DNA of 64,000 nucleotides. Source: Chitinophaga pinensis (lineage in GTDB: Bacteria; Bacteroidota; Bacteroidia; 2-12-FULL-35-15). Where the stretch lies: contig CAMCUO010000005.1 in NCBI GenBank assembly GCA_945879015.1, positions 1,306 to 65,305 of the forward strand, written 5' to 3'. The position numbers were made by a program, and so were the translations under genes. The notes below the pieces were generated by a model. It was not told the DNA's origin, searched no databases, and saw only the letters and a list, made by a program, of their open reading frames with translations. Within the stretch, counting starts at the first letter, position 1. Each line of letters begins with the position of its first letter. Below, one piece after another: positions 7,765 through 31,179 of the stretch.

Positions 7765-7892
7765 GAGCGTCATTGCGAGTCACGCCCAGAGCATCGGGGC
7801 GGGATGTGGCAATCTCTCATGATGAGGAGATTCGCTACCATTGAGGAGAGATTGCCACATCTCGCGAAAATGCGGGACTCGCAATGACGCTC
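7765..7892. repeat. Family A composite palindromic element (two roughly 50-nt units in inverted orientation)
   Basis: agagcgtcattgcgagtc...ggatgtggcaatctctc // gagagattgccacatc...gactcgcaatgacgctct. The same two units recur at 23202-23325. Confidence 0.85.
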
Positions 7893-13440: not shown

Positions 13441-13851
13441 ATGAAAAAACTTATCTATTCTCTTGTAATTACATTTTTAATGGGATTATCGGTAAACACA
13501 TTCGCTCAAAAAGCAGTTGCTACTATGGCATATTTGAATGTTAAAACTTCTAAAAAAGTTGTAGATGATAAAACTGCAATTGTTAGCTTTCAGTTAAATA
13601 ACATTTCAGATGAAGCTACATTAGCAAAATATAAGAAAGCATTTTCTTCTCAACAAAGAATTCAGTCAGTAACTACTTCTTTGCAAAAAGGAAATATGGC
13701 TTCTTTTTATATTAAAATGGACAAAACAGCAACACTAGAAACTTTACAAAGATTATTCGTTAAGGCACATGTTGCATCAGTAAATGTTGATGGCAAAGTT
13801 GCAGCTACTAAAGATCTTTCTAAATTAAAACAAAAATCTGCTAAAAAATAA
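13441..13851 (+). CDS. Hypothetical secreted protein
   Basis: 136 aa with a signal peptide (MKKLIYSLVITFLMGLSVNTFAQ). No recognisable domain. Confidence 0.5.
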   Translation: MKKLIYSLVITFLMGLSVNTFAQKAVATMAYLNVKTSKKVVDDKTAIVSFQLNNISDEATLAKYKKAFSSQQRIQSVTTSLQKGNMASFYIKMDKTATLETLQRLFVKAHVASVNVDGKVAATKDLSKLKQKSAKK

Positions 13852-15052: not shown

Positions 15053-16096
15053 CTAAATCCGATTCTTCGAAGGAGAAGGCCTGAAGGCTAAAGGTAGCTT
15101 GTATTTTATCTTAATTAAAATTCCCCAGACTGAGGATTTCAAATAACAATAGTTGTAATATAGTTTATCGAAAATAGTAGTTTTTTTTGAAGGAATGTGT
15201 TTCGCATAACCGAATCTCAAAGCCAATTTCTCACAAGCAAAATCAAGCAAAGCAATTTCTTCCGATTTTAATTCATTCACATAAGCATTAACCCTTTCGG
15301 TATTTACCTTTTTTTCCAAATTACCGTGCATACGTTGAATTTTTTCATTCTTTTCCTTAGAAACATTTTCCACCGCATGCTTTTTTATCTCTTTTGAAAG
15401 TTCCTGAAAATTGAGCATTTGCTCGGTATACGGAACATGAATGTAGGAACAAAGCAATTGTAAGTGCTCTGTAGGATCACTTGCCAAGTCTTCATATTTA
15501 ATTAAATGATAGGGAATGTTTTTCGTGGCAAGACATTCAAAAATGCTTTCATAATAATAATTCCAATCGGCTGCCAACTTGTGAATTGGAACATTTTCAT
15601 CCGAATATTTTCTTCTCGATAAAATATTGTCTCTGTAATCTCTAACAATGACAATAAATTTTGCATCAGGAAAGATTTCTGAAATTTTATCAATGTGCAA
15701 AGAGTAAGATGGATTTTTATCGATTACCCAATTCACATTTTTCTTCTCTTTTTGAGATAGGGGGTAATTCAAATAAGCGAGCTTGCAAACATTTGCAAAA
15801 GTTTTATCCTTTAACTGAAGGATATCTTTCTTTAATTCCGGACCGGGTTTCCATATACTTATCACTCTGTTGAAATTTTGGTCGAACATATCAATAAATG
15901 CATCCACTACTTTCTCATCATTAAAATCCTGCTGATGAAAGGTGTGATAAGAGTGCATAATGAATTCGTTTTCTGGACTGGCAATAATCTCAGGATTGGA
16001 ATTGAGTATATTTGTGAGAAGAGTAGTGCCCGAGCGACCCATTCCTACAATAAAGGCAATTTTTGGTAAAGATGATAATGGTTTTAATTCAGTCAT
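15053..16096 (-). CDS. PAPS-dependent sulfotransferase (paralog)
   Basis: GMGRSGTTLL and VRDYRDNILSRRK. Confidence 0.75.
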   Translation of the reverse strand: MTELKPLSSLPKIAFIVGMGRSGTTLLTNILNSNPEIIASPENEFIMHSYHTFHQQDFNDEKVVDAFIDMFDQNFNRVISIWKPGPELKKDILQLKDKTFANVCKLAYLNYPLSQKEKKNVNWVIDKNPSYSLHIDKISEIFPDAKFIVIVRDYRDNILSRRKYSDENVPIHKLAADWNYYYESIFECLATKNIPYHLIKYEDLASDPTEHLQLLCSYIHVPYTEQMLNFQELSKEIKKHAVENVSKEKNEKIQRMHGNLEKKVNTERVNAYVNELKSEEIALLDFACEKLALRFGYAKHIPSKKTTIFDKLYYNYCYLKSSVWGILIKIKYKLPLAFRPSPSKNRI

Positions 16097-16310: not shown

Positions 16311-18854
16311 ATGAGGCTAATTGACAAATATTTTCCTTTAATTTCAGTTACTTCAGAAAATCGGGAGGCGCTTTTCAATATCGATAGGCTTCGTTTTTTT
16401 AGTCTGGCTTTAGCGCAATTTATTTTAATTCTTTTTATTGTTACTCGCTATAATTTTGAAAAGTCATCAGGAATAATCGATTATGCTCCTTATGTTATTC
16501 TAGTATTTGCAATTTATAGTTTTATTGCCATCCGTTTTCGTCCAGCATTTCTATTTCTTGCGTGTGTTGCACTTGTTTATGCAGCATTTGGAATTCTGGC
16601 TGGAAGTTTTTTTATTCTTATCGGATTAGGTTTGATTTTAATTTGTCACTTACCTATAAAATATACTTATCGCTTTGTATTAATATTAGCTATTGCATTT
16701 CTTCTAGCTCTTTTTAGGACAGAATTTATTTACATTCCATGGATGACTATGACTGCTATGTACATGGCTCCATTGTTTATGTTCCGACTCATTATTTATT
16801 TGTATGAAATAAAGAACGGAGTGGTACCTGCAAATAAATGGCAAAGTATCAGTTACTTTTTTATGTTTCCAAATGTGTTCTTTCTCTTCTTTCCAATTAT
16901 CGATTACAAAACCTATATCAAAACACACCTCGATTCACCTGAAAAAGAAATATGGCAAAAAGGAATTCGATGGATGCTGCGTGGATTGATTCACATCATG
17001 TGTTATCGTTTGATCTGTTTTCATTTTTTAATCGGACCAGTTGAAGTAATTGACCTTCCAACAATGTTGCAATACATGGTGGTTAATTATTCTTTGATTA
17101 TCAGACTTTCTGGTGTATTTCATTTTATGATTGGTCTGGTTTGTATGTTTGGATTCAATCTTCCTCAAATATTTGACAATTATTTTACTGCTACCAGCTT
17201 TGTTGATTTGTGGAGAAGAATAAATATTTATTGGAGAAATTTCGTTCTAAAAATATTTTTCTACCCAACAATGTTTAGGTATAAAAAAATTCTGAAAAAG
17301 AATTTGTTGGCTTTTACCATGATGACGGTTTTCTTTATAACCTGGATAATGCATAGTTATCAGTTGTTTTGGATAACAGGTGTAGTTTCTGTTAGATCCA
17401 TAGATGTTATTTTTTGGATGGTGATTGGTGCATGTATAACTACAAATTCGGTAATTGTTGAAAAATATACTTTAGCTGAAGACAGAGTAGAAAAGCCTCA
17501 ATCGGAGTTTAAAAAGTATTTCATGAAAATAATCCGAATGATGGGAATGTTTCTTTTCATGTCAATTATGTGGTCGTTATGGAATACACGTACATTGGAA
17601 GATTGGCTTTTTATTGTTTCAAAAGGAAAACAAGTTGATTCGAAACAGTTACTTCTTATTTTTTCGGTTGTAATTGGAATTATTGGTTTAGGAATTCTTG
17701 TTCAGATGATGTTGAAAAATGTTAAGTTAAAACAGCTTATTAATAGGAAACCGCACGAAACAATTTTATTGACTTTGTCTACACTTACACTTCTAACATT
17801 ATTTTCTTTCAAAGAAATTCGTTCTAATATACCTTTATCAGTGCAACATTTGTACGATCAAATTTCTGATGGTTCAGCTAACAAACTTGAGAAAACAAAT
17901 GCTGAAGCAGGTTATTACGATAAATTGATTGAAGGCGAAGAGGGCAATACAATTGGCATAGGAGGAAGGTCATTAAAAAAGATGGTGAAGAAAAATCCTT
18001 ATACCAATGCTTATATTTATCAAAACAATATTGTAAACCGAAGAATGAAACCCAATCTCAACATTGTTGGTTCGGATCATAATTTTCAAAGTAATAGTTT
18101 TGGAATAAGAGATAAAGAGTATTCTATAAAAAAACCTCTTGGAACAAAACGTTTAGCATTGCTTGGCGGCTCTTATCAAATGGGTTCTGGTGTAAATAAC
18201 AATGAAGTTTTTGAAGCCATTGCAGAAGAAAGAATGAACAAAGAGTTGGTGGATACAAATTATAAAGCTTTTGAAATTTTCAATTTTGCTGCTGGTGGTT
18301 ATTATTTGTTGCAGCATGTTGAAATAGTTCATACATCTGTATTTCAATACGACATGGATGCCTTGGTATATTTTGCGCATACTGATGAAAGAGGCAAAGT
18401 GGTAAAAGATTTTACTACTATTATCAAGAAAGAATTGCCATTGAAATACCCATTTCTTCAGCAAATTGTCAAAGAAAGCGGCATTAAATCTTATATGAGT
18501 ATTTTACAAATAAGAGAATTACTGACTCCATATGCCGATACAATTATGAAATGGGGTTATAAGGAAATATATGAGCAATGTAAAAAGAACAATGTGGTTC
18601 CTGTTTGGGCCTATATGGAAACTACTACTGAGTTTGTTGATGATGCAGAATATAATGAGCTAAAAGCATACGCTGAATCATTAGGTTTTGTAACTTTGGA
18701 TTTACGCAATACCTATGGCAATATTGATAGAGTTGAAATTCAGATTTCGGATTTAAATACTCACCCAAATGTATTAGGACATCGATTGATTGCTGAAAGG
18801 TTTTATAAAGAGTTGAAATTAAAAAGAGATAGTATTTTTAGAATTGTTGAATAA
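16311..18854 (+). CDS. MBOAT-family membrane acyltransferase (DltB/AlgI-like) fused to a C-terminal SGNH/DltD-like domain
   Basis: 847 aa. The N-terminal roughly 470 aa are polytopic, with the MBOAT signatures DLWRRINIYWRNF and the conserved His in FFITWIMHSYQLFW. After 2-3 further TMs, a soluble domain carries LLGGSYQMGSG (block I-like Ser) and DLNTHPNVLGHRLIAERF (block V-like). Confidence 0.75.
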   Translation: MRLIDKYFPLISVTSENREALFNIDRLRFFSLALAQFILILFIVTRYNFEKSSGIIDYAPYVILVFAIYSFIAIRFRPAFLFLACVALVYAAFGILAGSFFILIGLGLILICHLPIKYTYRFVLILAIAFLLALFRTEFIYIPWMTMTAMYMAPLFMFRLIIYLYEIKNGVVPANKWQSISYFFMFPNVFFLFFPIIDYKTYIKTHLDSPEKEIWQKGIRWMLRGLIHIMCYRLICFHFLIGPVEVIDLPTMLQYMVVNYSLIIRLSGVFHFMIGLVCMFGFNLPQIFDNYFTATSFVDLWRRINIYWRNFVLKIFFYPTMFRYKKILKKNLLAFTMMTVFFITWIMHSYQLFWITGVVSVRSIDVIFWMVIGACITTNSVIVEKYTLAEDRVEKPQSEFKKYFMKIIRMMGMFLFMSIMWSLWNTRTLEDWLFIVSKGKQVDSKQLLLIFSVVIGIIGLGILVQMMLKNVKLKQLINRKPHETILLTLSTLTLLTLFSFKEIRSNIPLSVQHLYDQISDGSANKLEKTNAEAGYYDKLIEGEEGNTIGIGGRSLKKMVKKNPYTNAYIYQNNIVNRRMKPNLNIVGSDHNFQSNSFGIRDKEYSIKKPLGTKRLALLGGSYQMGSGVNNNEVFEAIAEERMNKELVDTNYKAFEIFNFAAGGYYLLQHVEIVHTSVFQYDMDALVYFAHTDERGKVVKDFTTIIKKELPLKYPFLQQIVKESGIKSYMSILQIRELLTPYADTIMKWGYKEIYEQCKKNNVVPVWAYMETTTEFVDDAEYNELKAYAESLGFVTLDLRNTYGNIDRVEIQISDLNTHPNVLGHRLIAERFYKELKLKRDSIFRIVE

Positions 18855-18888
18855 TATATTTGTTTGTCAAACTTAAAATATAAAAAAC

Positions 18889-19152
18889 ATGCGTGCAGAC
18901 ATTAACGAAATAAAAGAAACAGTAAAGGCGTTCGTTAATAAACGTTTTTTAAAAAATGCTGAAGGGAAAGAATTAAACTATTCAACTCCTCTCATTTCTG
19001 GTGGTATTATTGATTCGATACTTGCTATGCAGTTGGTTGTTTTCCTAGAACAAACCTACAGGTTTGAATTTCAAGCACACGAAGTTGATAAAGATAATTT
19101 AGATAACATCGATATCATTGCAGGGTTTGTTGTAAAGAAGTTGAATGCATAA
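18889..19152 (+). CDS. Stand-alone carrier protein (PCP/DltC-like)
   Basis: 87 aa. GGIIDSILAMQLVVFLE contains the phosphopantetheine Ser. Its 3' end overlaps the adenylase start. Confidence 0.8.
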   Translation: MRADINEIKETVKAFVNKRFLKNAEGKELNYSTPLISGGIIDSILAMQLVVFLEQTYRFEFQAHEVDKDNLDNIDIIAGFVVKKLNA

Positions 19153-20599
19153 GGTAAATAAGCTATATCAGCTTCTTGAAAATTCGGCAGAACAGTTTCC
19201 GGATAATACTGCTTTAGTTTTGCAAGAAAAAAAGATTAGCTATCAACAATTAGATTCATTAGCTAATAAAATAAAACAAGCTCTTCATTCTATAAACATT
19301 TCTGAAGGAAATCGTATCGCTATTTGCTCTCCTAAATCCATTGAATTTGTCGCCTCTATTTTCGGAATATTAAAAGCTGGTGCTGCTTATGTTCCTGTTG
19401 ATTATAATTCACCTATTGAACGCAATAATTTTATTATTGAAAATTGTGAAGTAGCTGCAATTATTATTACTAAAGACTTGTTAGAAAATTTTAAAAATAA
19501 TTTTACGTTTTTCGCAGATATTGGAATTGATTTAGTTTTAGCAAAAAGCAATAAGGTAACATTAAAAAAATCTTCTGAAGATTTATCCTATATTCTATAT
19601 ACTTCAGGCTCAACGGGAAATCCAAAGGGTGTAATTTATACCAATGCTGGAGCACTTGAATTTATCAATTGGAGTTCAAATACTTTTTCTCCCACTTCGA
19701 GTGATTGTTTTTCGTCGCATGCGCCTTTTCATTTCGATCTTTCTATTTTTGATTTATATGTTTCTATAAAGCATGGAGCAACTTTGGTTCTGATAAAAGA
19801 AGAAGTGGCGAAACAACCTATGCTATTGGCTCAATTAATTTCAGAACAAAAAATTAGTATTTGGTATTCTACTCCTTCAATTCTAATAATGCTTTCGGAA
19901 TATGGCAAAATGGAAAAGTATAAGTATGATAGTTTGAGATTGATATTATTTGCTGGTGAAGTTTTCCCAATTGTCAAATTAAATACATTAAAGAAAAAAG
20001 TTAAAACATCGGTTTTTTATAATCTTTATGGACCAACAGAAACAAATGTTTGTACGTATTATCAATTGCCTGAAAATATTGAAACAAATATTCCGATTGG
20101 AAAAGTATGCGAACATTATCAAGCCTGTGTTGTTGGTGATGAGCTTTTAATTAGCGGAAAAGGTGTGATGTTGGGTTATTGGAATGTTCCTGAAAAAGAT
20201 AATTTTTGGAAGGACCAAGAAAATAGATTTTGGTACAAAACGGGTGATTTGGTAGATGTTGCAGAGAGTGGAGATTATATCTTTAAAGGCAGAAGAGATA
20301 GAATGGTGAAGCGCAATGGTTATAGAATAGAATTGGATGAAATAGAAACAGGATTAAGTAAACATCCCGATATTGTTATTGCGGCTGTTGTCAGTAAGAA
20401 CAATGAAGAAGAGCAAATGATTATTTCTGCCTTTGTTGTTTTAAGAAATACTGAGCAAAAATCAGTCATAAAAATGAAGGAATATTGTATGAATCACTTA
20501 CCTTCGTATATGGTTCCCAACGACTTTATTTTTGTTGAGGATTTGCCACAAACATCAAGCAATAAAGTGGATTATCAGAAATTAAAACAATTAGCCTAA
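19145..20599 (+). CDS. Stand-alone NRPS-type adenylation enzyme (DltA/PltF-like amino acid--carrier protein ligase)
   Basis: All A-domain cores are readable: LKAGAAYVPVD, LYTSGSTGNPKGV, FHFDLSIFD, NLYGPTETNV, YKTGDL, GRRDRMVKRNGYRIELDEIE, LPSYMVP, NKVDY. Confidence 0.85.
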   Translation: MHKVNKLYQLLENSAEQFPDNTALVLQEKKISYQQLDSLANKIKQALHSINISEGNRIAICSPKSIEFVASIFGILKAGAAYVPVDYNSPIERNNFIIENCEVAAIIITKDLLENFKNNFTFFADIGIDLVLAKSNKVTLKKSSEDLSYILYTSGSTGNPKGVIYTNAGALEFINWSSNTFSPTSSDCFSSHAPFHFDLSIFDLYVSIKHGATLVLIKEEVAKQPMLLAQLISEQKISIWYSTPSILIMLSEYGKMEKYKYDSLRLILFAGEVFPIVKLNTLKKKVKTSVFYNLYGPTETNVCTYYQLPENIETNIPIGKVCEHYQACVVGDELLISGKGVMLGYWNVPEKDNFWKDQENRFWYKTGDLVDVAESGDYIFKGRRDRMVKRNGYRIELDEIETGLSKHPDIVIAAVVSKNNEEEQMIISAFVVLRNTEQKSVIKMKEYCMNHLPSYMVPNDFIFVEDLPQTSSNKVDYQKLKQLA

Positions 20600-21747
20600 T
20601 GGAACTTTCCTTATCAACAGAGCAAATGCTTATCCAGGAAAACATTATTGGTTTTGCTCAAAAAGAATTGAATAATAATATTATTGAGCGCGATAAAAAC
20701 CAGCAGTTTTTACCTGAATTATGGAAAAAATGTGCGGAACAAAAACTTACTGGATTACCTGTTGAGGAAAAATTTGGTGGTGCTGGTTTAGATCCTATTT
20801 CTTCTGTTTTAGCATTGGAAGCATTGGGTTATGGCTCCGATGACGGTGGTTTGAATTTTTCTATATGTGCACATTTATTGGCTTGTGTTGTTCCTATCTG
20901 GAAATACGGAAACGAAAATCAAAAGAAAAAATACTTGCCTGATTTATGTAATGGAAAAAAAATTGCTGTAAATGCAATGACAGAAAGCGAATCGGGTTCG
21001 GATGTTTTTAATATTAAAACAACTGCTAAAAAGCAGGATAATGGATTTGTGATAAACGGAACAAAAACGTTTTGTTCAAATGGTCCAGTTGGAGATATAA
21101 TTTTAGTTTATGCGCTTACTGATGAAAGCAAAGGGTATTATGGTGGAATTACAGCTTTCATTGTAGATAAAAATGCAAAAGGATTTAAAGTCGGTCAGAA
21201 ATATGAGAAAATGGGTTTGCGCAGTTCGGGTATTTCTGAAGTAATATTTGAAAATGTTTTTGTTTCAGAAGAAGATATGGTTGGAGGATTTGGTGGTGGA
21301 GCAACGGTGTTTAATCATTCGATGGAGTGGGAGCGAACTGGTATGGCAGCTTTGCATGTTGGAACCATGCGCAAGTTGCTTGAAAAATCAATTGATTATG
21401 TTCAAACACGCAAATCAGGAAATGAAGTAATCGGTAAAAAACAAGCTATCGCTCATCGCATTGCAAATATGAAAGTTCAATTGGAAGCAGCTTCTTTGCT
21501 TACTTATAAAGCTGCATTAGGATTAGAAAAAAATAAAGAGAACATGATTCATGCAGCTTCAGCTAAACTTTTTGTGAGTGAAGCATTTGTTGCTGCTGCG
21601 ATTGATACCATGCAACTTTTTGGTGGAAATGGTTATATGACAGAATACGGTATTGAAAGAATTGTGCGAGATGCTCTTGGAAGTACTGTTTATTCTGGCA
21701 CATCCGATATTCAACGTAACATCATTTCTCGTTTGCTTGGATTGTAA
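20599..21747 (+). CDS. Acyl-CoA dehydrogenase-family flavoprotein, probably acting on a carrier-bound substrate
   Basis: 382 aa with the ACAD fold length. The C-terminal RDALGSTVYSGTSDIQR has Ser where MCAD has the catalytic Glu, and a Glu is present in SMEWER (IVD-like position). Start shares nt 20599 with the adenylase stop. Confidence 0.8.
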   Translation: MELSLSTEQMLIQENIIGFAQKELNNNIIERDKNQQFLPELWKKCAEQKLTGLPVEEKFGGAGLDPISSVLALEALGYGSDDGGLNFSICAHLLACVVPIWKYGNENQKKKYLPDLCNGKKIAVNAMTESESGSDVFNIKTTAKKQDNGFVINGTKTFCSNGPVGDIILVYALTDESKGYYGGITAFIVDKNAKGFKVGQKYEKMGLRSSGISEVIFENVFVSEEDMVGGFGGGATVFNHSMEWERTGMAALHVGTMRKLLEKSIDYVQTRKSGNEVIGKKQAIAHRIANMKVQLEAASLLTYKAALGLEKNKENMIHAASAKLFVSEAFVAAAIDTMQLFGGNGYMTEYGIERIVRDALGSTVYSGTSDIQRNIISRLLGL

Positions 21748-21790
21748 AATATTTAGTATTTTAGCGCTAGTTCTCGATACTACTAAATTT

Positions 21791-23179
21791 ATGAAACTAT
21801 ACGATGTCATCATTATTGGCGGGGGGCCAACAGGTTCAACTGCTGCGACACTTTTAGCTCAAAAAGGGTTAAGTGTTTTGTTGTTAGAAAAAGAATCCTT
21901 CCCAAGAGAACATGTTGGTGAATCATTGATTCCGATTTCTTATGATCAATTGAATAAGTTGGGATTGGTTGAAGAAATGAAAAAAATTTCTAGTCGTAAA
22001 CCTGGAGTTAGTTTTGATGCAAATGATGGTGTGAACCGATCTTTATGGTGTTTTAAAAGTGTTATTAAAGATGAATCATATTTAGCTTTTCATGTTATCC
22101 GTTCGGCATTTGATAAGCTTTTGTTGGATAATAGTAAAAAAGTGGGAGCTGAAGTGAGAGAGCAATACATGGTGAAAAATGTAATTCTTGATAGAGCAGA
22201 TAAAATAGTAGAAGTGCATGCAACAAATGCAGAAGGCAAAGAAGAAAAATTTGAATCCAAATTTATTGTTGACGCAAGTGGACTAAGTACTTTTCTAGGA
22301 AGAAAATTGGGAGTTAAAAAAGCATATGCGGGTTTAGATAGAGTGGCTACTTGGTCGCACTGGACAAACACCGAATTTGATACAAATTTAAAAGAAGGCG
22401 TTATTAAAATTGTTTATTTGGGTGGAGAGAAAAAAGGATGGATATGGGTTATTCCTGTGAGCAAAGAGCATTTGAGCATTGGTGTGGTTGTGAATAACAG
22501 TCATGTGAAAGAAAAGAAAAAGCAATTTCAAGATTCAGAAGATTGGAAAAAAGATTATTATTTGCAGGAACTACAAGAATGTTATTTGTATAAAACGGTA
22601 TTGAAAAACGCTAAGATGGAGCATAAAGTTGCCATGGCTGGTGACTACTCTTATTACTGCGAAAAAAAGTATGGTGAAAATTATGCTTTAGTTGGAGATG
22701 CTGGTGCATTTTTAGATCCTATTTTTTCAAGCGGAATTTTTGTTGGAATGAAGAGTGCTGAATTGGTAGCGGATGGTATTGAAGCGAACCTGAAAGGAAA
22801 AGGGAATGCTGAAATGGACAAAGCTTATGTTAATATCAATGGTGCTGTCAACTTACTTGAAAAATTTATTCGCTTGTTTTATACTCCTGAAGCACTTGAT
22901 TTTTCTAAGATTGGAACTCCAGAAGGACTTTTAATGTTTAAAAAATACGAACAAACATATTCCGTTTTCCATTACTTATTAGCGGGTGATTTTTTCAATA
23001 ATTATGAAAAGTACAGTGAATTTATTGATACCATACGTGATGAGAAGACTATGGCCAAATTCGAAAATTTAATTGATCACGCGCACAGCGCCTTACCTAA
23101 AAGTTGCGGAGAAGATTTTGAAGAAATGTATGGTGAAATGACGCATAAAATTGAGTTTGATCATAAGGCGTTTGAGTAA
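21791..23179 (+). CDS. FAD-dependent halogenase-like oxidoreductase
   Basis: Start taken at MKLYDVIIIGGGPTGS (GxGxxG). Also carries FPREHVGESLIP, GWIWVIP (WxWxIP) and GDAGAFLDPIFSSG. The ORF-track start at 21653 overlaps the ACAD gene and is rejected. Confidence 0.7.
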   Translation: MKLYDVIIIGGGPTGSTAATLLAQKGLSVLLLEKESFPREHVGESLIPISYDQLNKLGLVEEMKKISSRKPGVSFDANDGVNRSLWCFKSVIKDESYLAFHVIRSAFDKLLLDNSKKVGAEVREQYMVKNVILDRADKIVEVHATNAEGKEEKFESKFIVDASGLSTFLGRKLGVKKAYAGLDRVATWSHWTNTEFDTNLKEGVIKIVYLGGEKKGWIWVIPVSKEHLSIGVVVNNSHVKEKKKQFQDSEDWKKDYYLQELQECYLYKTVLKNAKMEHKVAMAGDYSYYCEKKYGENYALVGDAGAFLDPIFSSGIFVGMKSAELVADGIEANLKGKGNAEMDKAYVNINGAVNLLEKFIRLFYTPEALDFSKIGTPEGLLMFKKYEQTYSVFHYLLAGDFFNNYEKYSEFIDTIRDEKTMAKFENLIDHAHSALPKSCGEDFEEMYGEMTHKIEFDHKAFE

Positions 23180-23201: not shown

Positions 23202-23325
23202 GAGAGATTGCCACATCCCGCGAAAATGCGGGACTCGCAATGACGCTCTGTTATGTGGTTATCGCTTTTAGAACGTCATTGCGAGGCACGACCCGAGCAT
23301 TCGGGGCGGGATGTGGCAATCTCTC
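23202..23325. repeat. Family A composite palindromic element, second copy, units in swapped order
   Basis: gagagattgccacatcccgcgaaaatgcgggactcgcaatgacgctct, then a 21-nt spacer, then gaacgtcattgcgaggcacgacccgagcattcggggcgggatgtggcaatctctc. It lies between convergent genes. Confidence 0.85.
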
Positions 23326-23349: not shown

Positions 23350-24063
23350 TCAAAAAAACCAAGCACTAACATTCATCACAATCTTCCTTCCCCAAGAAGG
23401 AACATGTTTTAAAAAATAAAAATTCTGAAATTTTAATTGCCACCAAAGTGTTGCATTTACTTTAGCACAAATTTGTTTTTTGTCATTTTCAAATTCTTCA
23501 CGTAAAATATCAATAATCAAAATCCACCGTTCATTTTCTGTTTTGTTCCATACTTCATGTTCGTATGCATCACAGAAGGCAAAGAGTTTTCCATTTTTCC
23601 ATGAAATTTGCTCATTTCCAACTCTCATTCCAATTTCCGGTAAGCTATTTTTGCAGTTTAAAGTAAAGTGACATCGATACATCACATTGCTATCACCATG
23701 ATGTGGTTTTATGGAAGTATTTGCATTTAAAATGGAAAACGAAGCATGTGTCATTGCTGGAATGCTTTCGATTATTCTTGTCGTCTCCGGACATTTTTCA
23801 CAATTTTCTTTTTTCTTTTTGCTCCAAACATACAATGGAAAAATAGTCCAGTTCTCTGCTTTGCTGGCAAGTGATTTATTCATGTAAGGAATAATATTTT
23901 TATCCTTTGATTCAACAAGTTTGGTGAATTCTTTTAAAATTAAATCGTAATTGTCTTCAAAAAGAGCCACCCATTTTTTGTCATGGATATCAAAAAAATT
24001 AGGCTCTGGGCCTTTGTAAGCGCTATTCTCTGCAAACGAATACCATTTCTTTGAATTTCCCAT
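23350..24063 (-). CDS. Aspartyl/asparaginyl beta-hydroxylase (AspH/LpxO) family Fe(II)/2OG dioxygenase, paralog 1
   Basis: KPHHGDSNVMYRCHFTL and FCDAYEHEVWN. Confidence 0.75.
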   Translation of the reverse strand: MGNSKKWYSFAENSAYKGPEPNFFDIHDKKWVALFEDNYDLILKEFTKLVESKDKNIIPYMNKSLASKAENWTIFPLYVWSKKKKENCEKCPETTRIIESIPAMTHASFSILNANTSIKPHHGDSNVMYRCHFTLNCKNSLPEIGMRVGNEQISWKNGKLFAFCDAYEHEVWNKTENERWILIIDILREEFENDKKQICAKVNATLWWQLKFQNFYFLKHVPSWGRKIVMNVSAWFF

Positions 24064-24806
24064 TAGTAAACTTTAAATAGATTAACACTTACTATAGCCA
24101 GTCGTGTAAATGGATGTAAACATTTTGCTAAAAACTTAATTGTTCTAGCAGATAATTTTTTAAGAAAAGTATATTTCTGCCATCTCTTTTGTAAAAAAAG
24201 CGAAGTCATTACTGTTGCGCAAATTTTTTCTTTTTCATTTTTAAATTCATCACGCACAACATCCACCACAAAAATAAAACGATCTTTCTCCGAATTATTA
24301 TACGCTTCATGTTGATAGGCATCCATAAACATCAACCATTTCCCATTTTTCCATGGACGAACTTCCTCTTTAACTTTAAAGGCACATTCTGGAAGTCCAG
24401 CCGGAATTTCCAGTCCTAAATGACATCTATAAATAGTATTTGTATCTCCGCAATGTGGATGAATTTTACTTTTTGCTTCTAATAAATTAAAAGAGGAAGA
24501 AGTAATTTCTGGATATTTTTGAATAATGGAATAAGTTATTGGAAAATATTTCTGATTTTTAAACTGTTGAATTCCCCATGTTCTCAGTGGAATTGTTTTC
24601 CAGCTATTTTCACGCGAAACCATTGATTTTATAAAATAACCAATGAGGTTGTCGCTTTTAAGATATTCTTTGAGTTCTTTATAAATGGCTTCGTAATTTT
24701 CTTCAAACTCTTTTGTCCAGCGAAATTCTTCTGGTTTAGTAAAAGGAGCTTCCGTTCCATGATATTCGTCATTTACGTTATATATGTTGTACCAAGCCTT
24801 TTGCAT
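24063..24806 (-). CDS. AspH/LpxO-family dioxygenase, paralog 2
   Basis: HPHCGDTNTIYRCHLGLEIP and FMDAYQHEAYN. Its stop shares nt 24063 with the paralog 1 start. Confidence 0.75.
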   Translation of the reverse strand: MQKAWYNIYNVNDEYHGTEAPFTKPEEFRWTKEFEENYEAIYKELKEYLKSDNLIGYFIKSMVSRENSWKTIPLRTWGIQQFKNQKYFPITYSIIQKYPEITSSSFNLLEAKSKIHPHCGDTNTIYRCHLGLEIPAGLPECAFKVKEEVRPWKNGKWLMFMDAYQHEAYNNSEKDRFIFVVDVVRDEFKNEKEKICATVMTSLFLQKRWQKYTFLKKLSARTIKFLAKCLHPFTRLAIVSVNLFKVY

Positions 24807-24850
24807 CCACTCTTTATTTATTATATTTGTTTTAGTAAAAACTCTAGCAA

Positions 24851-25537
24851 ATGTCTGAATTCGAATTTACAAATAAAAATCCTAAGTTCTTTTATGATTC
24901 TGCTCAGTTTCCTTTTTTGAAGCCATTGCTTGATAATGTTGGGGTTATTCGAAAAGAGTTGCAAGATATTATTGCTTCAGGAAAGGAAAATCAATGGATG
25001 AATACGTTTCCACATTATGTAAAATCTGACGAGCACAAAGCTTGGAAGGTATTTTCATTTTTGTTCTTTAATATGAAGCTTCCCAACAACGCAAAATTAT
25101 GTCCGAAAACGGCTGAACTCATTTATTCTATTACAGAGATTCTTTCTTGTGATTATTCTTATATGAATCCAGGAACTCATGTGCTGCCTCACAAAGGTTA
25201 TTCACGAATGGTTTTACGTTGTCACATTGCTTTGATTGTTCCAGATGAGGAACTTTGTGCTTTACGTGTTGGAAATGAAATTAAACATTGGAAAGAAGGC
25301 GAACTTATAATTTTTGATGATTCATTTGAACATGAAGCATGGAATAGATCCGACAAAAGAAGAGTTGTTTTAATGTTTGATATTCCAAATCCCCTTTGGG
25401 GATATACTGCTCATGAAATTTCAAAATATAAAATTGATAAAATTGATGATCCTTTTCTTTTATCGATGGCTCCCAAAGATGAATGGATAAAAGCGTTTGA
25501 AAAAGGAATTTTTCCTTTGGAGAGTTTTAAAGATTAA
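24851..25537 (+). CDS. AspH/LpxO-family dioxygenase, paralog 3
   Basis: LPHKGYSRMVLRCHIALIVP and FDDSFEHEAWN. It is divergent from paralog 2 across a 44-bp spacer containing TATATTTG (24821-24828). Confidence 0.75.
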   Translation: MSEFEFTNKNPKFFYDSAQFPFLKPLLDNVGVIRKELQDIIASGKENQWMNTFPHYVKSDEHKAWKVFSFLFFNMKLPNNAKLCPKTAELIYSITEILSCDYSYMNPGTHVLPHKGYSRMVLRCHIALIVPDEELCALRVGNEIKHWKEGELIIFDDSFEHEAWNRSDKRRVVLMFDIPNPLWGYTAHEISKYKIDKIDDPFLLSMAPKDEWIKAFEKGIFPLESFKD

Positions 25538-26584: not shown

Positions 26585-27196
26585 TTAGAGCAAAGCATTT
26601 ATCGCCTCCATATTCTCATCACAAACTTCACCGCTAAATTTTAATTCCGCATTTTGATCGCTCAAAATTGCAGCAGCTTTATTTAGTTTTGCACCAATTG
26701 TTTTGTAGTCATCCACGTGCAATTCGTATAATTGATTGTCCACATGCTCTTGATCTGACAGTAATTTGTAGCCAAGTAACTTGTTGTAATGAATGGCTCT
26801 ATCATTGTCGCTCAATATTCTGATACGAGAAATTTTGCTGACATTTAATTTTAAAAACATAAAATTCAAAAGACACAATGTTGCAAAAACGGCTGCAAAG
26901 GAGCTGATGTAGTCTTTGTCACTAATAAAAATTCCTCCTTCGCCAAATCCTAAGCCTACATCATAATTTTTTGCATTGATGAGTCCAACTTGTTTGCCTT
27001 CAAATTCAATAATAAAATAATAATTGTTTCTGTTGTTTACGGATTTGAACCAAATTTTTTGAGCTTCAGGTGTAATGAAATTACGGTATTCCATGTAATT
27101 AGCAATATCACTTTGGTTTCTCCAATTACGAACCATCTCAATATCTTTTTCTTGCACTCTTACAAGCCGAACGCCATATTGTTCAAGAACTAACAT
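26585..27196 (-). CDS. GNAT-family N-acetyl/acyltransferase (PseH-like size)
   Basis: 203 aa with an N-terminal RLVRVQEKDIEMVRNWRN typical of sugar-N-acetyltransferase GNATs. Start overlaps the GT2 stop. Confidence 0.6.
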   Translation of the reverse strand: MLVLEQYGVRLVRVQEKDIEMVRNWRNQSDIANYMEYRNFITPEAQKIWFKSVNNRNNYYFIIEFEGKQVGLINAKNYDVGLGFGEGGIFISDKDYISSFAAVFATLCLLNFMFLKLNVSKISRIRILSDNDRAIHYNKLLGYKLLSDQEHVDNQLYELHVDDYKTIGAKLNKAAAILSDQNAELKFSGEVCDENMEAINALL

Positions 27197-28107
27197 ATGA
27201 TTTCGTCTTCGTTATAGGAAGGCGCATTGTTCAAAGCTTTTAACATCTGACTTATATATTGTGCGACAATTCCAATGCAGAAAATAATTATACCTGTAGA
27301 AAAAAGAATACTTACAATCAAAGAAGTATAACCTTCCACATCAATTTTTAAGTAAAACTTTTTAATGATGTAAAAAATTCCAATAATGAAATTGATAGTA
27401 GCTAAACTAAATCCAATATAGGTTACCAATTTTAATGGTAGAGTAGATGAAAACATGATGATGGTAGAAGTCATCTTAAACAATCCTGCTACTTTGTAAC
27501 GTTGCTTATGTATGTAATCAGGATTTGCATTTACATCTACAAAGGCTAATTTTTTTGTGTACCATAAACACAATTCATCAATAAAAACAAATTGTTTGTG
27601 ATTGTGTACCAACTTATCAGTCAGTGATTTTTTTAATAATCTAAAACTGCTTCCTTTTCCTTTTTGTGGGCCTTCCAGCTTTGCTAGTATTTTATATGCT
27701 CCAGAAAAAATTCCTCTAAAAAAAGGTTGATTTTGTTTTGGATACAATCCATAAACCAGATCAGCATTTGTATTTTTTTGATTATCGATTAGCTTTTGAA
27801 TTTCTGAAGGGTGAACTTCTAAATCATCATCAATGGTAATAACAAAATCTCCTTTCGCATGTTTGAAGCCACAAACAGTAGCTCCGTGCTGACCGAAATT
27901 TTTACTTAAGCGAATAATGGTTGTGTTGGATGAACTTGCTTTTATTTTTTTTAATACTTCCCAGCTATTGTCGGTACTACAATCATCCACAAAAATAATT
28001 TCGTAGGAATATTTGTTTTCAAAAAATGAAACAATGCTTTGGTGCACCTTCTCAAGTGCATTTTCAGAACCATAAACTGGAATAACTATGCTATAGTTTG
28101 TGCTCAT
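27190..28107 (-). CDS. Family 2 glycosyltransferase, polyprenyl-phosphate sugar transferase type (ArnC/GtrB-like)
   Basis: IVIPVYGSE...IIFVDDCSTDNS, a DxD in TIDDDLEVH, and two C-terminal TM helices. Confidence 0.75.
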   Translation of the reverse strand: MSTNYSIVIPVYGSENALEKVHQSIVSFFENKYSYEIIFVDDCSTDNSWEVLKKIKASSSNTTIIRLSKNFGQHGATVCGFKHAKGDFVITIDDDLEVHPSEIQKLIDNQKNTNADLVYGLYPKQNQPFFRGIFSGAYKILAKLEGPQKGKGSSFRLLKKSLTDKLVHNHKQFVFIDELCLWYTKKLAFVDVNANPDYIHKQRYKVAGLFKMTSTIIMFSSTLPLKLVTYIGFSLATINFIIGIFYIIKKFYLKIDVEGYTSLIVSILFSTGIIIFCIGIVAQYISQMLKALNNAPSYNEDEIIC

Positions 28108-28847
28108 ATTTTACTATTTAAAAGTAATCCACCATCCATTTTTATAACTGTTCCAGTAATTCTTTTTGATGCGGCACTTAATAAAAACGCAGCAGTATTT
28201 GCAACATCAATTGGTTCACTTATTCCAAGTGGGTAACGACTTTCAATTTCTGCAAATTCTTCTTTTGAATAAATTTGCTCTGCTTGTTCCAAAATTTTTG
28301 TCCGAACCAGACCAGGAGCAATGGTGTTTACTCGTATTTTTTTAGAAGCTGTTTCCAAAGCCAATCCTAAAGCAAAAGACTCTAATGCAGCTTTTGATGC
28401 AGTATAAAGCGAACCTCCCGTGTATGGATGATTTGCAGAAATGGATGAAATGAAAACAACTGATGCTTCGTTATTTAATTTTTTTGCAGATAATAATCCA
28501 CTACTCAGCAATACAGCCGATGAAAAATTTATTTTAAAAAGTTCATCAATGTGTCTTGATTTTAAAAACTTTATTGGAAGTGGATTGATAATTCCAGCAC
28601 AATGAACGAAACCATCAATAGCAGGTATTTTAGAAATCAAATAATTAATTTCCTCTTCGTTTGACAAATCAGCAATAAAAAAGCCTGCTTTATTTTTTAA
28701 TAATGCTTTTGTTTTATTTAATTCATCAGCATTGCGACCAGTGATAATGATATTAGCACCCAAAGAATCACACAATTGCGCAGTTGCTCTTCCTATTCCA
28801 GAAGTAGCACCAGTCACCAAAATTGTTTTATTCTCAAGCTCTGTCAT
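28104..28847 (-). CDS. Short-chain dehydrogenase/reductase (FabG-like ketoreductase)
   Basis: VTGATSGIGRATA and YTASKAAL (YxxxK). Confidence 0.8.
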   Translation of the reverse strand: MTELENKTILVTGATSGIGRATAQLCDSLGANIIITGRNADELNKTKALLKNKAGFFIADLSNEEEINYLISKIPAIDGFVHCAGIINPLPIKFLKSRHIDELFKINFSSAVLLSSGLLSAKKLNNEASVVFISSISANHPYTGGSLYTASKAALESFALGLALETASKKIRVNTIAPGLVRTKILEQAEQIYSKEEFAEIESRYPLGISEPIDVANTAAFLLSAASKRITGTVIKMDGGLLLNSKI

Positions 28848-29892
28848 ATTCTAAAAGTTTTGTATAAACATTTTCGGTTTCTAAAATAACACTTCCCCAG
28901 GAATATCCAACTCCGAAACCACTCAATAACAAAGATAATTTTTTTGTTCGTAATGCTTCTTTCATTTTGTAGCACATGGTTAATGGAATAGAAGCGGAGC
29001 TAGTGTTCCCAAAAACATCTATAGAATAAGGCACTTTTTCAAGATCTATTTTTAATTTTTTTCTCACACTTTCGTTGATGAGCTTGTTGGCTTGATGCAT
29101 AACGAAGTAATCTGTATTCTCTTTTGATTTATTACTTTTTTCATAAAGTGTAGTAATATTTGAAGCCGCTTCTTTCAATGCAAAATTAAAAACATCCATT
29201 CCATTTAAAATCAAATGCTTTTTTGCTCTACTAATTCCTGGTTCAATTTCTACTAAATCTTCCAATGTTTTATCAAACGGTGTTCTGCAACTTCCATGTT
29301 CAATTATGATTGCATTTTTTCCGGAGCCATCGCTTTGTAAATTAAAATGCATTTCATTTTTAGTTTGTGAATGCTCTATCAATGTTGCGGTTCCTGCATC
29401 TCCAAAAAGTGGATAAGTGCTTTTATCGGTATATGTTGTAGATGTAGATGACTTATCTCCAACTATCAATAAGCCTTTTTTTAATTGTCCGCTTTGCATT
29501 AAGTTGGTGATTACCGACAATCCATAAACATATCCAGAACAACCTAAGCTGATATCAAATGCGATACAATCTTTTTTTAATCCTAAACGGTTTTGTAATA
29601 AAATGGAAGTCGCTGGTAAAATATAATCGGGTGACTGAGAAACAAAAATCAGGACATCAATTTCTTCAGCACAATTATATTTATCTAATAAATGTTTAGC
29701 TGCTGTAAAACATAAATCGGAGCAAGCAACATCTTTAGCGGCAACTCTTCTTTCTTTTATTCCAGTAGTTTTTGCAAATAATTCTCTTTCCTCAACTGAA
29801 ATATGATTGTAATCGGCAGTTTTTTCTATGTGAGTTGGCACACAGCTGGAGATTGCAATAATATTCGTTTTAGTAGTAGATAGATAGGCCAC
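28834..29892 (-). CDS. KAS III (FabH)-like ketosynthase, copy 2
   Basis: Cys-His-Asn triad contexts: SLGCSGYVYG, MHQAN, GNTSSASIP. Confidence 0.8.
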   Translation of the reverse strand: MAYLSTTKTNIIAISSCVPTHIEKTADYNHISVEERELFAKTTGIKERRVAAKDVACSDLCFTAAKHLLDKYNCAEEIDVLIFVSQSPDYILPATSILLQNRLGLKKDCIAFDISLGCSGYVYGLSVITNLMQSGQLKKGLLIVGDKSSTSTTYTDKSTYPLFGDAGTATLIEHSQTKNEMHFNLQSDGSGKNAIIIEHGSCRTPFDKTLEDLVEIEPGISRAKKHLILNGMDVFNFALKEAASNITTLYEKSNKSKENTDYFVMHQANKLINESVRKKLKIDLEKVPYSIDVFGNTSSASIPLTMCYKMKEALRTKKLSLLLSGFGVGYSWGSVILETENVYTKLLEYDRA

Positions 29893-30129
29893 TTATTTTA
29901 ATTTTTCGATAGTAATATTATAAAGATCTTGGATTGTTTGTGCCGATTTTAAATCAGCGCCATTTAATAATGCATTAAAATTCGCATCAATGTATGCAAT
30001 GATAATTAAGGCATGCATACTGCTCCAACCTTTTATACTTCTAAAGTTTGTAGCGGAGCTAAGAGTCCCAGGTTCTAAATCTTCAAATTCAACTTCTAAA
30101 CCTTTCGTAAATTCTTCTATGCTATTCAT
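29893..30129 (-). CDS. Acyl carrier protein
   Basis: 78 aa. KGWSSMHALIIIAYID has the Ser attachment context. It abuts the downstream KASIII with no gap. Confidence 0.7.
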   Translation of the reverse strand: MNSIEEFTKGLEVEFEDLEPGTLSSATNFRSIKGWSSMHALIIIAYIDANFNALLNGADLKSAQTIQDLYNITIEKLK

Positions 30130-30165: not shown

Positions 30166-31179
30166 CTATAGCTCAATAATGGTTGCACCCCAAGACAAAC
30201 CGACTCCAAATCCTGCGAGTAATATTTTTTGTCCTGGTTTTGCTTTTCCTGATTTAATGGCTTCACTTAATGTAATGGGGATGCTTGCAGCAACTGTGTT
30301 TCCAACACCTGCCATGTAATTAAAAACTTTTTCCTCCGGAATTTTCATTTTTGTTCGTATGGAATTAATCAAAAATAAATTCGCTTGATGAAAAATAAAA
30401 AGATCAACGTCTTCGATATTTAATTTTTCTTTCGCCAATAAATCTTTAATCATTGCTGGAACAGTTTTTAATCCAAAATGAAAAACTCCAGCACCGTCCA
30501 TGTGTAAATTAGCATCGGTAGTCACATTTCCGTGTTCATTTTCTATTTCAATAAAAGAATTTTTTGAAATTGGATTTCTTGCACCACCATCTCTGATGAT
30601 AATTTTTTCTGCCATTTTTCCATCTGTTCCAAAAACGAATGAACTAATGTTAGCATTTTTTTTACCAGACGAAATGAGCGTTGCAGCTGCACCATCACCA
30701 AAAACAAATTTTGAACTTCTATCTTTTTTATGAATATTTTTTGTGAGTGTTGAAGAAGTAATTAGCAAAACATTTTTCAATCCCAAAGACTCAATCATTC
30801 CTTTTGCCATCCCTAATCCATATACAAATCCGCTACAACCTAAACTGTAATCCATTGCTCCAGCATTTATTGGAAGCCCTAATTTTGCTTGTATGATAGA
30901 GGCAGAGGCAGGAAACATGTAATCAAACTCCAAAGCACAAAAAAGTAAAAAATCAATTTCTTCAGGTTTAACTTTGTGTTCTTTGAAAAGTGCTAATGCT
31001 GCTTTAACAGCAAGATCAGAAGCTGTTTCATTTTTAGCTACTATATGCCTTTCAACAACTCCAATTCTTGCATAGTTTTCTTTTTGAGAAACAGTTGCAG
31101 GAAAAGCTTTGAAAAAATCTGTATTACTATAGATTTTTTCGGGAAGATAATAACTGATAGCTTTTATGAATGCCGACAT
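30166..31179 (-). CDS. KAS III (FabH)-like ketosynthase, copy 1
   Basis: SLGCSGFVYG, FHQAN, GNTVAASIP. Confidence 0.8.
   Translation of the reverse strand: MSAFIKAISYYLPEKIYSNTDFFKAFPATVSQKENYARIGVVERHIVAKNETASDLAVKAALALFKEHKVKPEEIDFLLFCALEFDYMFPASASIIQAKLGLPINAGAMDYSLGCSGFVYGLGMAKGMIESLGLKNVLLITSSTLTKNIHKKDRSSKFVFGDGAAATLISSGKKNANISSFVFGTDGKMAEKIIIRDGGARNPISKNSFIEIENEHGNVTTDANLHMDGAGVFHFGLKTVPAMIKDLLAKEKLNIEDVDLFIFHQANLFLINSIRTKMKIPEEKVFNYMAGVGNTVAASIPITLSEAIKSGKAKPGQKILLAGFGVGLSWGATIIEL

Follow-up and report, generated by a model that had tools for sequence, protein, structure and literature searches.

Why should a bacterium keep three diverged genes for one kind of hydroxylase side by side, and on what would their products act? 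The question is raised by a stretch of 64,000 nucleotides (referred to here as the window) of contig CAMCUO010000005.1, which is assigned to Chitinophaga pinensis and has a G+C content of approximately 33% throughout. The DNA is that of an uncultured member of the Bacteroidia, and contigs identical to that of the window are present in two metagenome assemblies. A first-pass annotation, made without database searches, had pointed to three clustered open reading frames (ORFs), and the coordinates and lengths that it gave proved exact:

23350..24063, minus strand: paralog 1, 237 aa, PF05118 Fe(II)/2-oxoglutarate (2OG) hydroxylase with iron motif H121-x-G-D, H169 and R179
24063..24806, minus strand: paralog 2, 247 aa, PF05118 hydroxylase with an H-x-G-D motif
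24851..25537, plus strand: paralog 3, 228 aa, PF05118 hydroxylase, soluble, the universal member of the locus

Our answer, to which we would assign a probability of about one half, is that the three proteins would work in the cytoplasm as tailoring hydroxylases of a pathway that glycosylates the envelope by way of polyprenyl-phosphate sugars, and that the hydroxyl groups they introduce would subsequently be sulfated.

The assignment of all three proteins to the AspH/LpxO family was borne out. Each matched PF05118 (Asp_Arg_Hydrox) over the full model (positions 1-157) with 136-148 bits against a cut-off of 22.6 (E 1e-39 to 1e-43), which is far beyond chance. The two motif blocks by which the family had been recognised are present (K/H/L-P-H-H/C/K-G and F-x-D-A/S-Y/F-E/Q-H-E-V/A-W/Y-N), except that the second half of the first block had been garbled and actually reads [MIV]-[YL]-R-C-H. 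The 2OG/Fe site is intact: all three paralogs keep both His ligands of the iron and the Arg, Arg and His that bind 2OG. Residues H114, H161, R171, R123, H125 and S103 of paralog 3 correspond to H679, H725, R735, R688, H690 and S668 of human AspH, and the alignment shows no variation at these catalytic columns in paralogs 1 and 2. Structure models covered paralog 3 and one neighbouring protein described below. The AlphaFold model of paralog 3 (predicted local distance difference test score, pLDDT, 91; predicted template modelling score, pTM, 0.90) superimposed on human AspH with a root mean square deviation of 1.4-1.9 Å (30% identity, E 4e-17); proline hydroxylases were the next-best folds, far weaker than AspH. 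Paralogs 1 and 2 matched AspH by sequence with E 3e-17. No hydrophobic segment of transmembrane (TM) grade (KD19 ≥ 1.6) was found in any of the three, N-terminus included (no signal-peptide predictor was run), and for this reason they look cytoplasmic. From the family match and the intact site, the three genes are predicted to encode cytoplasmic Fe(II)/2OG hydroxylases of the AspH/OlsC/LpxO family.

The first-pass annotation had framed these enzymes by way of LpxO and OlsC, and hence of lipid A and ornithine lipid. This framing was not supported by comparison with curated models and references, for which we used annotated LpxO of Klebsiella, Acinetobacter and B. cenocepacia and one alphaproteobacterial OlsC. 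The OlsC and LpxO models were the only NCBIfam models matched. OlsC (NF052565), the best curated model for all three paralogs, gave 104, 110.6 and 132.6 bits against a cut-off of 450, and LpxO (NF033391) gave 55.5, 65.8 and 98.4 bits against a cut-off of 500. By comparison the OlsC reference from Pseudoroseomonas, an alphaproteobacterium, scored 536 bits with its own model, and the LpxO references of Klebsiella and B. cenocepacia scored 552 and 524. Identity to OlsC was 31%, 32% and 36% for paralogs 1, 2 and 3, respectively; to human AspH it was 29%, 30% and 39% (the last over 126 aa), and to LpxO 24-29%, 23-28% and 29%. In a neighbour-joining tree the paralog 1, paralog 2 and paralog 3 clades were supported by 100%, 97% and 100% of bootstraps, the sister relationship of paralogs 1 and 2 by 100%, the union of OlsC with LpxO by 90% and that of paralog 3 with a cyanobacterial group by 70%. 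With scores so far under the cut-offs and with separate clades, the paralogs do not appear to be orthologs of LpxO or OlsC.

Nor are they recent copies of one another. Paralogs 1 and 2 share 38% identity and paralogs 1 and 3 share 29%. A recent tandem duplication is ruled out by this range (29-38%) and by the separate orthogroups with 97-100% bootstrap. They are three old, maintained orthogroups that have been gained and lost as modules. The orthogroup of paralog 1 is confined to a subclade, while that of paralog 2, its sister, is widespread. Related loci carry one, two or three hydroxylase genes, and six in one locus; additional copies of the paralog 2 type arose separately in other lineages.

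The first iron-binding motif reads PHHGD, PHCGD and PHKGY in the window paralogs and AHRGP in OlsC, and H-x-G is kept across all orthogroups. We considered whether H-x-G marks peptide rather than lipid substrates. The idea was rejected: genuine OlsC has H-x-G and only LpxO has H-x-D. Because the motif is shared by OlsC, AspH and the window paralogs, it does not discriminate between peptide and lipid hydroxylases. The position at +3 from the first iron-binding His does vary between groups. It is Asp (H-x-G-D) in 16 of 18 paralog 1 orthologs and 43 of 51 paralog 2 orthologs, the exceptions being mostly mis-registered regular-expression matches; elsewhere we found H-x-G-Y/F in paralog 3, H-x-G-P in OlsC and AspH, and H-x-D in LpxO.

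What the paralogs may act on is best approached through the genes that accompany them. Synteny was followed in a sample of 80 related genome loci (numbered L001 onwards, L001 being the window's own contig) together with separate Pfam-annotated contigs. The majority of the loci are contigs of metagenome-assembled genomes (MAGs), some with doubtful taxonomic labels; lineages of Flavobacterium, Sphingobacteriaceae and Arcticibacter are represented among these MAGs (L053, L057, L059 and L076), and the neighbour counts are lower bounds, as divergent homologs escape tblastn. The neighbours concerned are, in the window:

26585..27196, minus strand: GNAT acyltransferase (Acetyltransf_3), weakly PseH-like
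27190..28107, minus strand: GT2 glycosyltransferase of ArnC/GtrB/PgfS type with two C-terminal TM helices
28104..28847, minus strand: FabG-like short-chain dehydrogenase (SDR), probable ketoacyl reductase
28834..29892, minus strand: KASIII, a FabH-like condensing enzyme
29893..30129, minus strand: carrier-like protein, 78 aa, between two KASIII genes, no Pfam match
30166..31179, minus strand: second KASIII, FabH-like
31310..33304, plus strand: predicted GT-C+TPR protein with approximately 10 TM segments followed by C-terminal TPR; DD, YRP and HPxH[ST]E motifs

The GNAT gene is the tightest conserved partner. It lies beside paralog 3, in convergent orientation, in 57 of 60 loci, and GT2 does so in 56 of 60. 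Beyond this pair there is usually an SDR gene (35/44), a KASIII gene (33/44) and a second KASIII gene, and the 78-aa carrier-like ORF between the KASIII genes is conserved in 43 loci. The Pfam-annotated contexts (L083, L084, L086, L087, L094 and L095) agree with this GNAT/GT2/SDR/KASIII synteny, and no such partner was found at 14 distant homolog loci, mostly cyanobacterial. The paralogs thus belong to a locus conserved across Bacteroidota in which paralog 3 is fixed together with GNAT and GT2. This ties them to a glycan/acyl biosynthetic locus, as the first-pass annotation had supposed, and not to scattered generic protein hydroxylases; of the conservation of the triplet with its neighbours, the paralog 3-GNAT-GT2 core is near-invariant, while the number of hydroxylase copies varies by locus.

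Two further observations concern the immediate surroundings of paralog 3. In this genome only, a gene for a DUF808 membrane protein (25603-26526, minus strand) lies between paralog 3 and GNAT. It was rejected as a member of the cluster, being absent from all 80 related loci, where paralog 3 and GNAT invariably meet or overlap at their 3' ends. The DUF808 gene was therefore inserted in this lineage. In a Bacteroidota MAG (L061, 3575-10666) six consecutive PF05118 genes lie beside the same GNAT-GT2-SDR-KASIII set, and two of the six are very divergent (approximately 46 bits).

Outside the phylum, the outgroup nearest to paralog 3 is a homolog of approximately 190 aa from cyanobacteria (L079 7682-19678, Calothrix brevissima NIES-22; also L070-L073 and L077). 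Its gene directly precedes that of a 3,024-aa nonribosomal peptide synthetase (NRPS) with a condensation domain at its start; further upstream, in divergent orientation, are GT2 and SDR genes. The cyanobacterial cluster may produce a glycolipopeptide, with the homolog as hydroxylase of an acyl group or of an Asp/Asn residue.

The conserved partners GNAT, ArnC-like GT2 and ArnT/TMTC-like GT-C point to a polyprenyl-phosphate-sugar pathway rather than to lipid A or ornithine lipid. The GT2 protein is predicted to be a polyprenyl-phosphate sugar synthase because it resembles ArnC and PgfS and possesses two C-terminal TM helices. The membrane protein with TPR repeats is probably an ArnT/TMTC-like GT-C glycosyltransferase paired with this ArnC-like GT2. 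Among its orthologs, four of nine match PMT_2 (best E 3e-7) and three of nine match TMTC_DUF1736 (best E 3e-6). The window protein, annotated only as "TPR", has the motifs YSMDDEF, YEYRP and HPLHSEVV. In TMTC O-mannosyltransferases, whose closest solved homolog is ArnT, DD, YRP and HPxHT motifs have been described (PMC7801869), and DD, YRP and HPxH[ST] occur in the correct TMTC order in the protein of the locus. The gene is found as a tandem duplicate in L009, L048, L053, L057, L058 and L076, and in four copies in L012.

The three hydroxylases differ in their C-terminal tails in the way that the first-pass annotation had described, with amphipathic tails in paralogs 1 and 2 that paralog 3 lacks. 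In paralogs 1 and 2 the tails are cationic, aromatic-rich and amphipathic (hydrophobic moment, muH, 0.5-0.64) and contain no segment of TM grade; that of paralog 2 comprises 62 residues with a charge of +9. This character is conserved across the orthologs of paralogs 1 and 2, where net tail charge ranges from +1 to +11. The tail of paralog 3 is acidic and conserved in sequence. We infer that the tails of paralogs 1 and 2 are interfacial membrane anchors.

The distribution of sulfotransferases follows the same division. The window encodes two of them:

13872..14999, plus strand: sulfotransferase 1, 3'-phosphoadenosine 5'-phosphosulfate (PAPS) type, Sulfotransfer_3/_1
15053..16096, minus strand: sulfotransferase 2, PAPS type, Sulfotransfer_3/_1

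Related loci usually possess 2-5 PAPS-type sulfotransferases, with weak NoeE-like similarity. Co-occurrence was assessed with iterative hidden Markov models (HMMs) over 34 long loci. Sulfotransferases were present in 23 of 26 loci with at least two hydroxylase genes as against 3 of 8 loci whose sole hydroxylase is paralog 3 (Fisher p 0.009, without correction for phylogeny), and the GT-C/TPR gene was missing from all eight of the latter. Hydroxylase and sulfotransferase copy numbers do not match one to one (Spearman rho 0.24, p 0.17); the association is limited to presence and absence. Minimal loci in Crocinitomicaceae keep the GT-C/TPR gene, two or three sulfotransferases, a gene of the paralog 2 type, paralog 3, GNAT and GT2, and are without KASIII, SDR, carrier and MBOAT. 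From the counts over the 34 loci and from these minimal loci two modules emerge: paralog 3 goes with GNAT and GT2, and the membrane-tailed paralogs 1 and 2 go with the sulfotransferases and GT-C. It had been proposed that each new hydroxyl might serve as acceptor for the sulfotransferases or for an MBOAT protein of the same island. Synteny supports the first part of this proposal; the second is disfavoured, as the MBOAT enzyme is accessory and, on the model of Dlt and Pat, would act on the outer face of the membrane with an acyl group from a carrier protein (see below).

How might these proteins work together? OlsC and LpxO hydroxylate C2 of an acyl chain, and AspH hydroxylates the beta-carbon of Asp or Asn, alpha to the side-chain carboxyl. 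The chemistry shared by the family would thus be hydroxylation of the carbon adjacent to a carbonyl or carboxyl group, and for this reason an N-acyl substituent or a carboxyl-adjacent position is proposed as the target of the paralogs. In the pathway that we envisage, a decorated sugar would be built on polyprenyl phosphate and moved to an envelope acceptor at the outer face of the inner membrane, following the logic of Arn, Gtr and PMT systems. GNAT would N-acylate an amino sugar in the cytoplasm, with an acyl group built by KASIII, carrier and SDR where these are present, and the hydroxylases would insert a hydroxyl on the N-acyl substituent or at a carboxyl-adjacent position of the sugar intermediate. 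Soluble paralog 3 would act on a soluble intermediate, either nucleotide-bound or carrier-bound, while paralogs 1 and 2, anchored to the membrane surface through their cationic amphipathic tails, would act on the lipid-linked one. The neighbouring sulfotransferases would O-sulfate the new hydroxyl groups. GT2 would load the sugar onto polyprenyl phosphate and, after flipping, GT-C would transfer the product.

Several points weigh against this pathway. Each step beyond the presence of 2OG hydroxylases in the locus rests on synteny and family analogy, and we found no characterised precedent for hydroxylation followed by sulfation of a sugar-borne acyl group. The similarity of GNAT to PseH is weak (51 bits against a cut-off of 93). 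The window's copy of GT-C/TPR has no significant Pfam match, so its assignment rests on orthology and motifs, and a profile of its N-terminal membrane domain retrieved nothing from PDB sequences. The locus has no conserved gene for amino-sugar synthesis (aminotransferase, dehydratase), for a flippase or for PAPS synthesis. The loci behind the co-occurrence statistics are not independent of one another in phylogeny, and the co-occurrence counts are lower bounds. Finally, the NRPS-adjacent cyanobacterial outgroup of paralog 3 leaves peptide or lipopeptide substrates possible.

Between the sulfotransferases and the hydroxylases the window contains a further block on the plus strand:

16311..18854, plus strand: MBOAT-SGNH fusion O-acyltransferase, 847 aa, a fold-level identification
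18889..23179, plus strand: accessory cassette, an 87-aa carrier protein first, then three enzymes
19145-20599, plus strand: amino-acid adenylation enzyme of the cassette
20599-21747, plus strand: PigA/RedW-like prolyl-carrier dehydrogenase (PigA model 418 bits, cut-off 500)
21791-23179, plus strand: CmlS/PltA-like FADH2 halogenase of the cassette

The 847-aa protein had no Pfam, NCBIfam or PDB sequence match, even at E up to 1. In its structure model (pLDDT 84) the N-terminal half resembles DltB, HHAT and PORCN and the C-terminal half resembles GDSL esterases (Foldseek), and it shows an invariant WRR...W motif with His348 as well as Ser621, Asn658 and His818. The model thus points to an MBOAT-SGNH fusion, and the MBOAT that the first-pass annotation had placed in the island is present at fold level. 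An ORF at 1191-2549 that was considered as the "MBOAT" in question was rejected and encodes a phage-type integrase. The MBOAT-SGNH gene is accessory, being detected by HMM in at least 8 of 34 loci, and distant homologs, one of them in cultured Rhodocaloribacter litoris, are found in Wzy/GT4-type polysaccharide loci with sulfotransferases. MBOAT-SGNH enzymes transfer acyl groups onto extracytoplasmic polymers (PMC12148441), and for this reason the window protein is unlikely to use cytoplasmic hydroxyls.

The block from 16311 to 23179 is co-directional throughout and looks like a Dlt-type system in which a halogenated pyrrole-2-carboxylate would be esterified onto an extracytoplasmic polymer. 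A carrier protein, an adenylation enzyme, a prolyl-carrier dehydrogenase and a halogenase constitute the classical route to halopyrrole-2-carboxyl-S-carrier; the cassette is predicted to yield this thioester and to feed it to MBOAT-SGNH. Where it is encoded, MBOAT-SGNH would esterify the transferred product of the glycosylation pathway with halopyrrole-2-carboxylate from its own carrier protein. We know of no described envelope acylation with a halogenated pyrrole-2-carboxylate. In L093 (2706-12556) two MBOAT-SGNH paralogs flank a carrier, two AMP-ligases and a gene for an Rv2949c-like chorismate pyruvate-lyase; a sulfotransferase and a carbamoyltransferase are encoded in the same polysaccharide locus. 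The arrangement suggests a carrier-dependent aromatic (4-hydroxybenzoyl?) acylation of a glycan, in parallel to the pyrrole cassette of the window.

Taken as a whole, the locus could represent a new, Bacteroidota-wide envelope glycosylation, in which GT2 and GT-C attach an N-acylated, hydroxylated and sulfated sugar that carries a halopyrrole ester in some lineages. This broader proposal is tentative, and we consider it less probable than the reading given at the outset. The acceptor would be a periplasmic or outer-membrane component, possibly proteins in view of the TPR domain. Literature searches (PF05118 in Bacteroidota, hassallidin hydroxylase, bacterial TMTC-like plus sulfotransferase systems) returned no description of the locus. 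The three genes represent new subfamilies of a known enzyme family in a new conserved context, and the locus itself appears to be undescribed.

The alternative that survives best, though we regard it as unlikely, is that the hydroxylases tailor a diffusible specialised metabolite, a sulfated, glycosylated acyl or halopyrrole product, by acting on a carrier-tethered acyl or aminoacyl intermediate, a role suspected also for the NRPS-linked relatives in cyanobacteria. A KASIII-carrier-KASIII-SDR set, an adenylation enzyme, a prolyl-carrier dehydrogenase and a halogenase are indeed typical of natural-product clusters, module content differs between genomes, and the cyanobacterial sister group of paralog 3 resides beside the 3,024-aa NRPS with its GT2 and SDR genes. 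However, the partners that stay constant are a GT2 of polyprenyl-phosphate type, which has TM helices, and the GT-C/TPR membrane transferase; the MBOAT-SGNH family occurs elsewhere in Wzy-type polysaccharide loci; and GT2, GT-C/TPR and MBOAT-SGNH all act on membrane-linked or extracytoplasmic polymers. Moreover, the minimal loci keep two hydroxylases without any carrier-protein or KASIII gene, and neither an exporter nor a thioesterase is conserved in the locus.

Somewhat less probable again is the possibility that the paralogs are 2-hydroxylases of bulk membrane-lipid acyl chains in the sense of OlsC and LpxO, acting on ornithine or other aminolipids or on lipid A, and that their position in the locus is incidental. 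The reading has more than the two NCBIfam matches to recommend it: OlsC shares both H-x-G and a hydrophobic C-terminal tail with the paralogs, a membrane lipid as substrate would be in keeping with the amphipathic tails of paralogs 1 and 2, and some paralog 3 orthologs bear the automatic JGI name "ornithine lipid ester-linked acyl 2-hydroxylase". It could include the ornithine-lipid 2-hydroxylase of Flavobacterium, whose gene is still unidentified according to a 2026 review (PMC12971839). Against it, the scores are 4-9 fold under the equivalog cut-offs, the paralog clades stand apart from the OlsC+LpxO branch with its 90% bootstrap, the N-terminal segment of OlsC and LpxO is missing, LpxO uses H-x-D instead of H-x-G, and the near-invariant linkage to GNAT and GT2 is left unexplained. 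Among the Pfam-annotated neighbours in eight contexts we found no acyltransferase of OlsB, OlsA or OlsF type and no lipid A synthesis gene, which counts in the same direction; for OlsC genes, linkage to synthase genes is no requirement.

No small ORF is conserved with the locus, and a substrate encoded elsewhere is possible. The one small ORF tested as a conserved peptide substrate, a 136-aa secreted ORF at 13441-13851, was rejected on its weak recurrence in just two loci. Least probable of the alternatives is that the paralogs are Asp/Asn beta-hydroxylases of proteins or peptides like eukaryotic AspH, the hydroxylated residues being then sulfated, as predicted by Iyer et al. (2010) for bacterial neighbourhoods with beta-hydroxylase and sulfotransferase genes (PMC2938197): identity to human AspH (29-39%) is on a par with that to OlsC (31-36%), the two-His site is shared, and AspH binds its substrate through a TPR domain while the locus has a conserved TPR protein, but the enzymes look cytoplasmic whereas that TPR belongs to a type of membrane protein with outward-facing TPRs, no substrate ORF is conserved, no collagen-like or tail-collar gene of the kind considered by Iyer et al. 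is present, and H-x-G, occurring in the lipid hydroxylase OlsC too, is no pointer to peptides.

Returning to the arrangement of the genes, the stop codon of paralog 2 and the start codon of paralog 1 share one base at 24063 (TAATG), confirming the overlap noted at first pass. The junction lies between -1 and +4 nt in every related locus that has paralog 1. With L002 and L008 set aside as duplicates of L001 and L009, there are 15 such loci, and 11 of them show the identical 1-nt overlap. Upstream of paralog 2 lies the divergent spacer:

24807..24850, unstranded: 44-bp spacer between paralogs 2 and 3

The spacer is as it had been reported. The sequence box within it is one base off its reported position: TATATTTG occupies 24822-24829, 21 nt before the ATG of paralog 3. 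The window contains 103 copies of the pattern TAnnTTTG, where chance alone would give 105.6. In 9 of 42 loci (L001 included), one separate clade being among them, a copy stands 18-21 nt ahead of the start codon of paralog 3. As promoter evidence the box was rejected, with a motif at chance frequency and kept in position in only 9 of 42 loci. As a candidate Bacteroidota -7 promoter element, not significant alone, TATATTTG remains a weak lead.

The halogenase gene and paralog 1 converge on a spacer that holds a GC-rich nested palindrome (23202-23325) with 20-nt arms that are 100% complementary and a folding energy of -77 kcal/mol (z = -10). Its arm sequence recurs at 7799-7865 in the spacer after dnaN. 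The palindrome had no Rfam match, and an Rfam scan of the region gave nothing significant. It is a repeated intergenic element resembling repetitive extragenic palindromes (REP) or miniature inverted-repeat transposable elements (MITE), and possibly acts as a bidirectional terminator.

Approximately 11 kb upstream of the first sulfotransferase gene is the gene mentioned above for a tyrosine recombinase (1191-2549, minus strand) of the phage integrase family with an Arm DNA-binding domain; housekeeping genes (dnaN, a uvrD/pcrA-type helicase gene and an asparaginase gene) lie between it and the cluster. No compositional sign of a mobile island was seen in the window. On the other side the cluster borders the ribosomal str/S10/spc operon region (S12, S7, EF-G etc.), from 33640 onwards on the plus strand. 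This adjacency is confined to the window's own genome, S12 being absent from the flanks of related loci. One gene neighbouring the cluster bears a sorting domain of the type IX secretion system (T9SS).

What would follow if the glycosylation reading were right? To our knowledge, bacterial PF05118 enzymes are known only as acyl hydroxylases of lipid A and ornithine lipid. Here three anciently separated subfamilies are locked, together with sulfotransferases and an Arn/TMTC-like pair, into a locus of hundreds of Bacteroidota genomes, and a glycoconjugate would be a third substrate class for the family besides membrane lipids and EGF domains. A phylum dominant in soils, waters and guts would then possess a surface glycoconjugate that is both sulfated and hydroxylated, which could bear on surface charge, recognition by phages and predators, gliding, and the attachment of T9SS cargo. 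Sulfate together with a halopyrrole ester would be a new bacterial surface decoration, and a Dlt-like acylation with halopyrrole a new form of envelope acylation. Should the membrane-lipid alternative be true instead, the genes would be candidates for the long-missing ornithine-lipid 2-hydroxylase of Flavobacterium.

Known systems resemble parts of the locus. Human AspH shares with the paralogs the fold, the two-His iron site (H679, H725), S668, R688, H690 and R735. It is, however, a type II membrane protein of the endoplasmic reticulum lumen with fused TPR that acts on EGF-like domains, whereas the window paralogs are small, stand-alone and apparently cytoplasmic, with neither a TM segment nor TPR. 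LpxO, the lipid A secondary-acyl 2-hydroxylase, belongs to the same Pfam family, has the same catalytic core and, as proposed for the paralogs, is an envelope-modifying bacterial dioxygenase, but it has H-x-D (RHRDP or LHRDP) where the paralogs have H-x-G, and it possesses hydrophobic N- and C-terminal segments. OlsC, the Rhizobium-type 2-hydroxylase of the ester-linked acyl chain of ornithine lipid, is alike in Pfam family, H-x-G...H motif, 2OG Arg/His residues and size and, like paralogs 1 and 2, carries a hydrophobic or amphipathic C-terminal tail behind the catalytic core. Its N-terminal extension of approximately 45 residues is not found in the window paralogs, whose partners are GNAT, GT2, GT-C and sulfotransferases instead of aminolipid genes.

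The block formed by MBOAT-SGNH and its cassette is comparable to Dlt (DltA-D) and PatA/PatB in combining a carrier, an adenylating enzyme, an MBOAT and an SGNH domain in one gene block. It differs from them in that MBOAT and SGNH are fused in one 847-aa protein and that the predicted acyl group is a proline-derived halogenated pyrrole-2-carboxylate, not D-alanine or acetate. The glycosylation core is closest in layout to the Arn (ArnC/ArnT), Gtr and PMT/TMTC systems, in which a GT2 that loads polyprenyl phosphate is likewise combined with a polytopic GT-C. The cytoplasmic N-acylating enzyme of the locus may be likened to the formyltransferase of ArnA, which N-acylates in the cytoplasm before lipid loading. 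To this common plan the locus adds PF05118 hydroxylases, sulfotransferases, a KASIII-carrier-SDR set and MBOAT-SGNH, none of which is part of the known systems.

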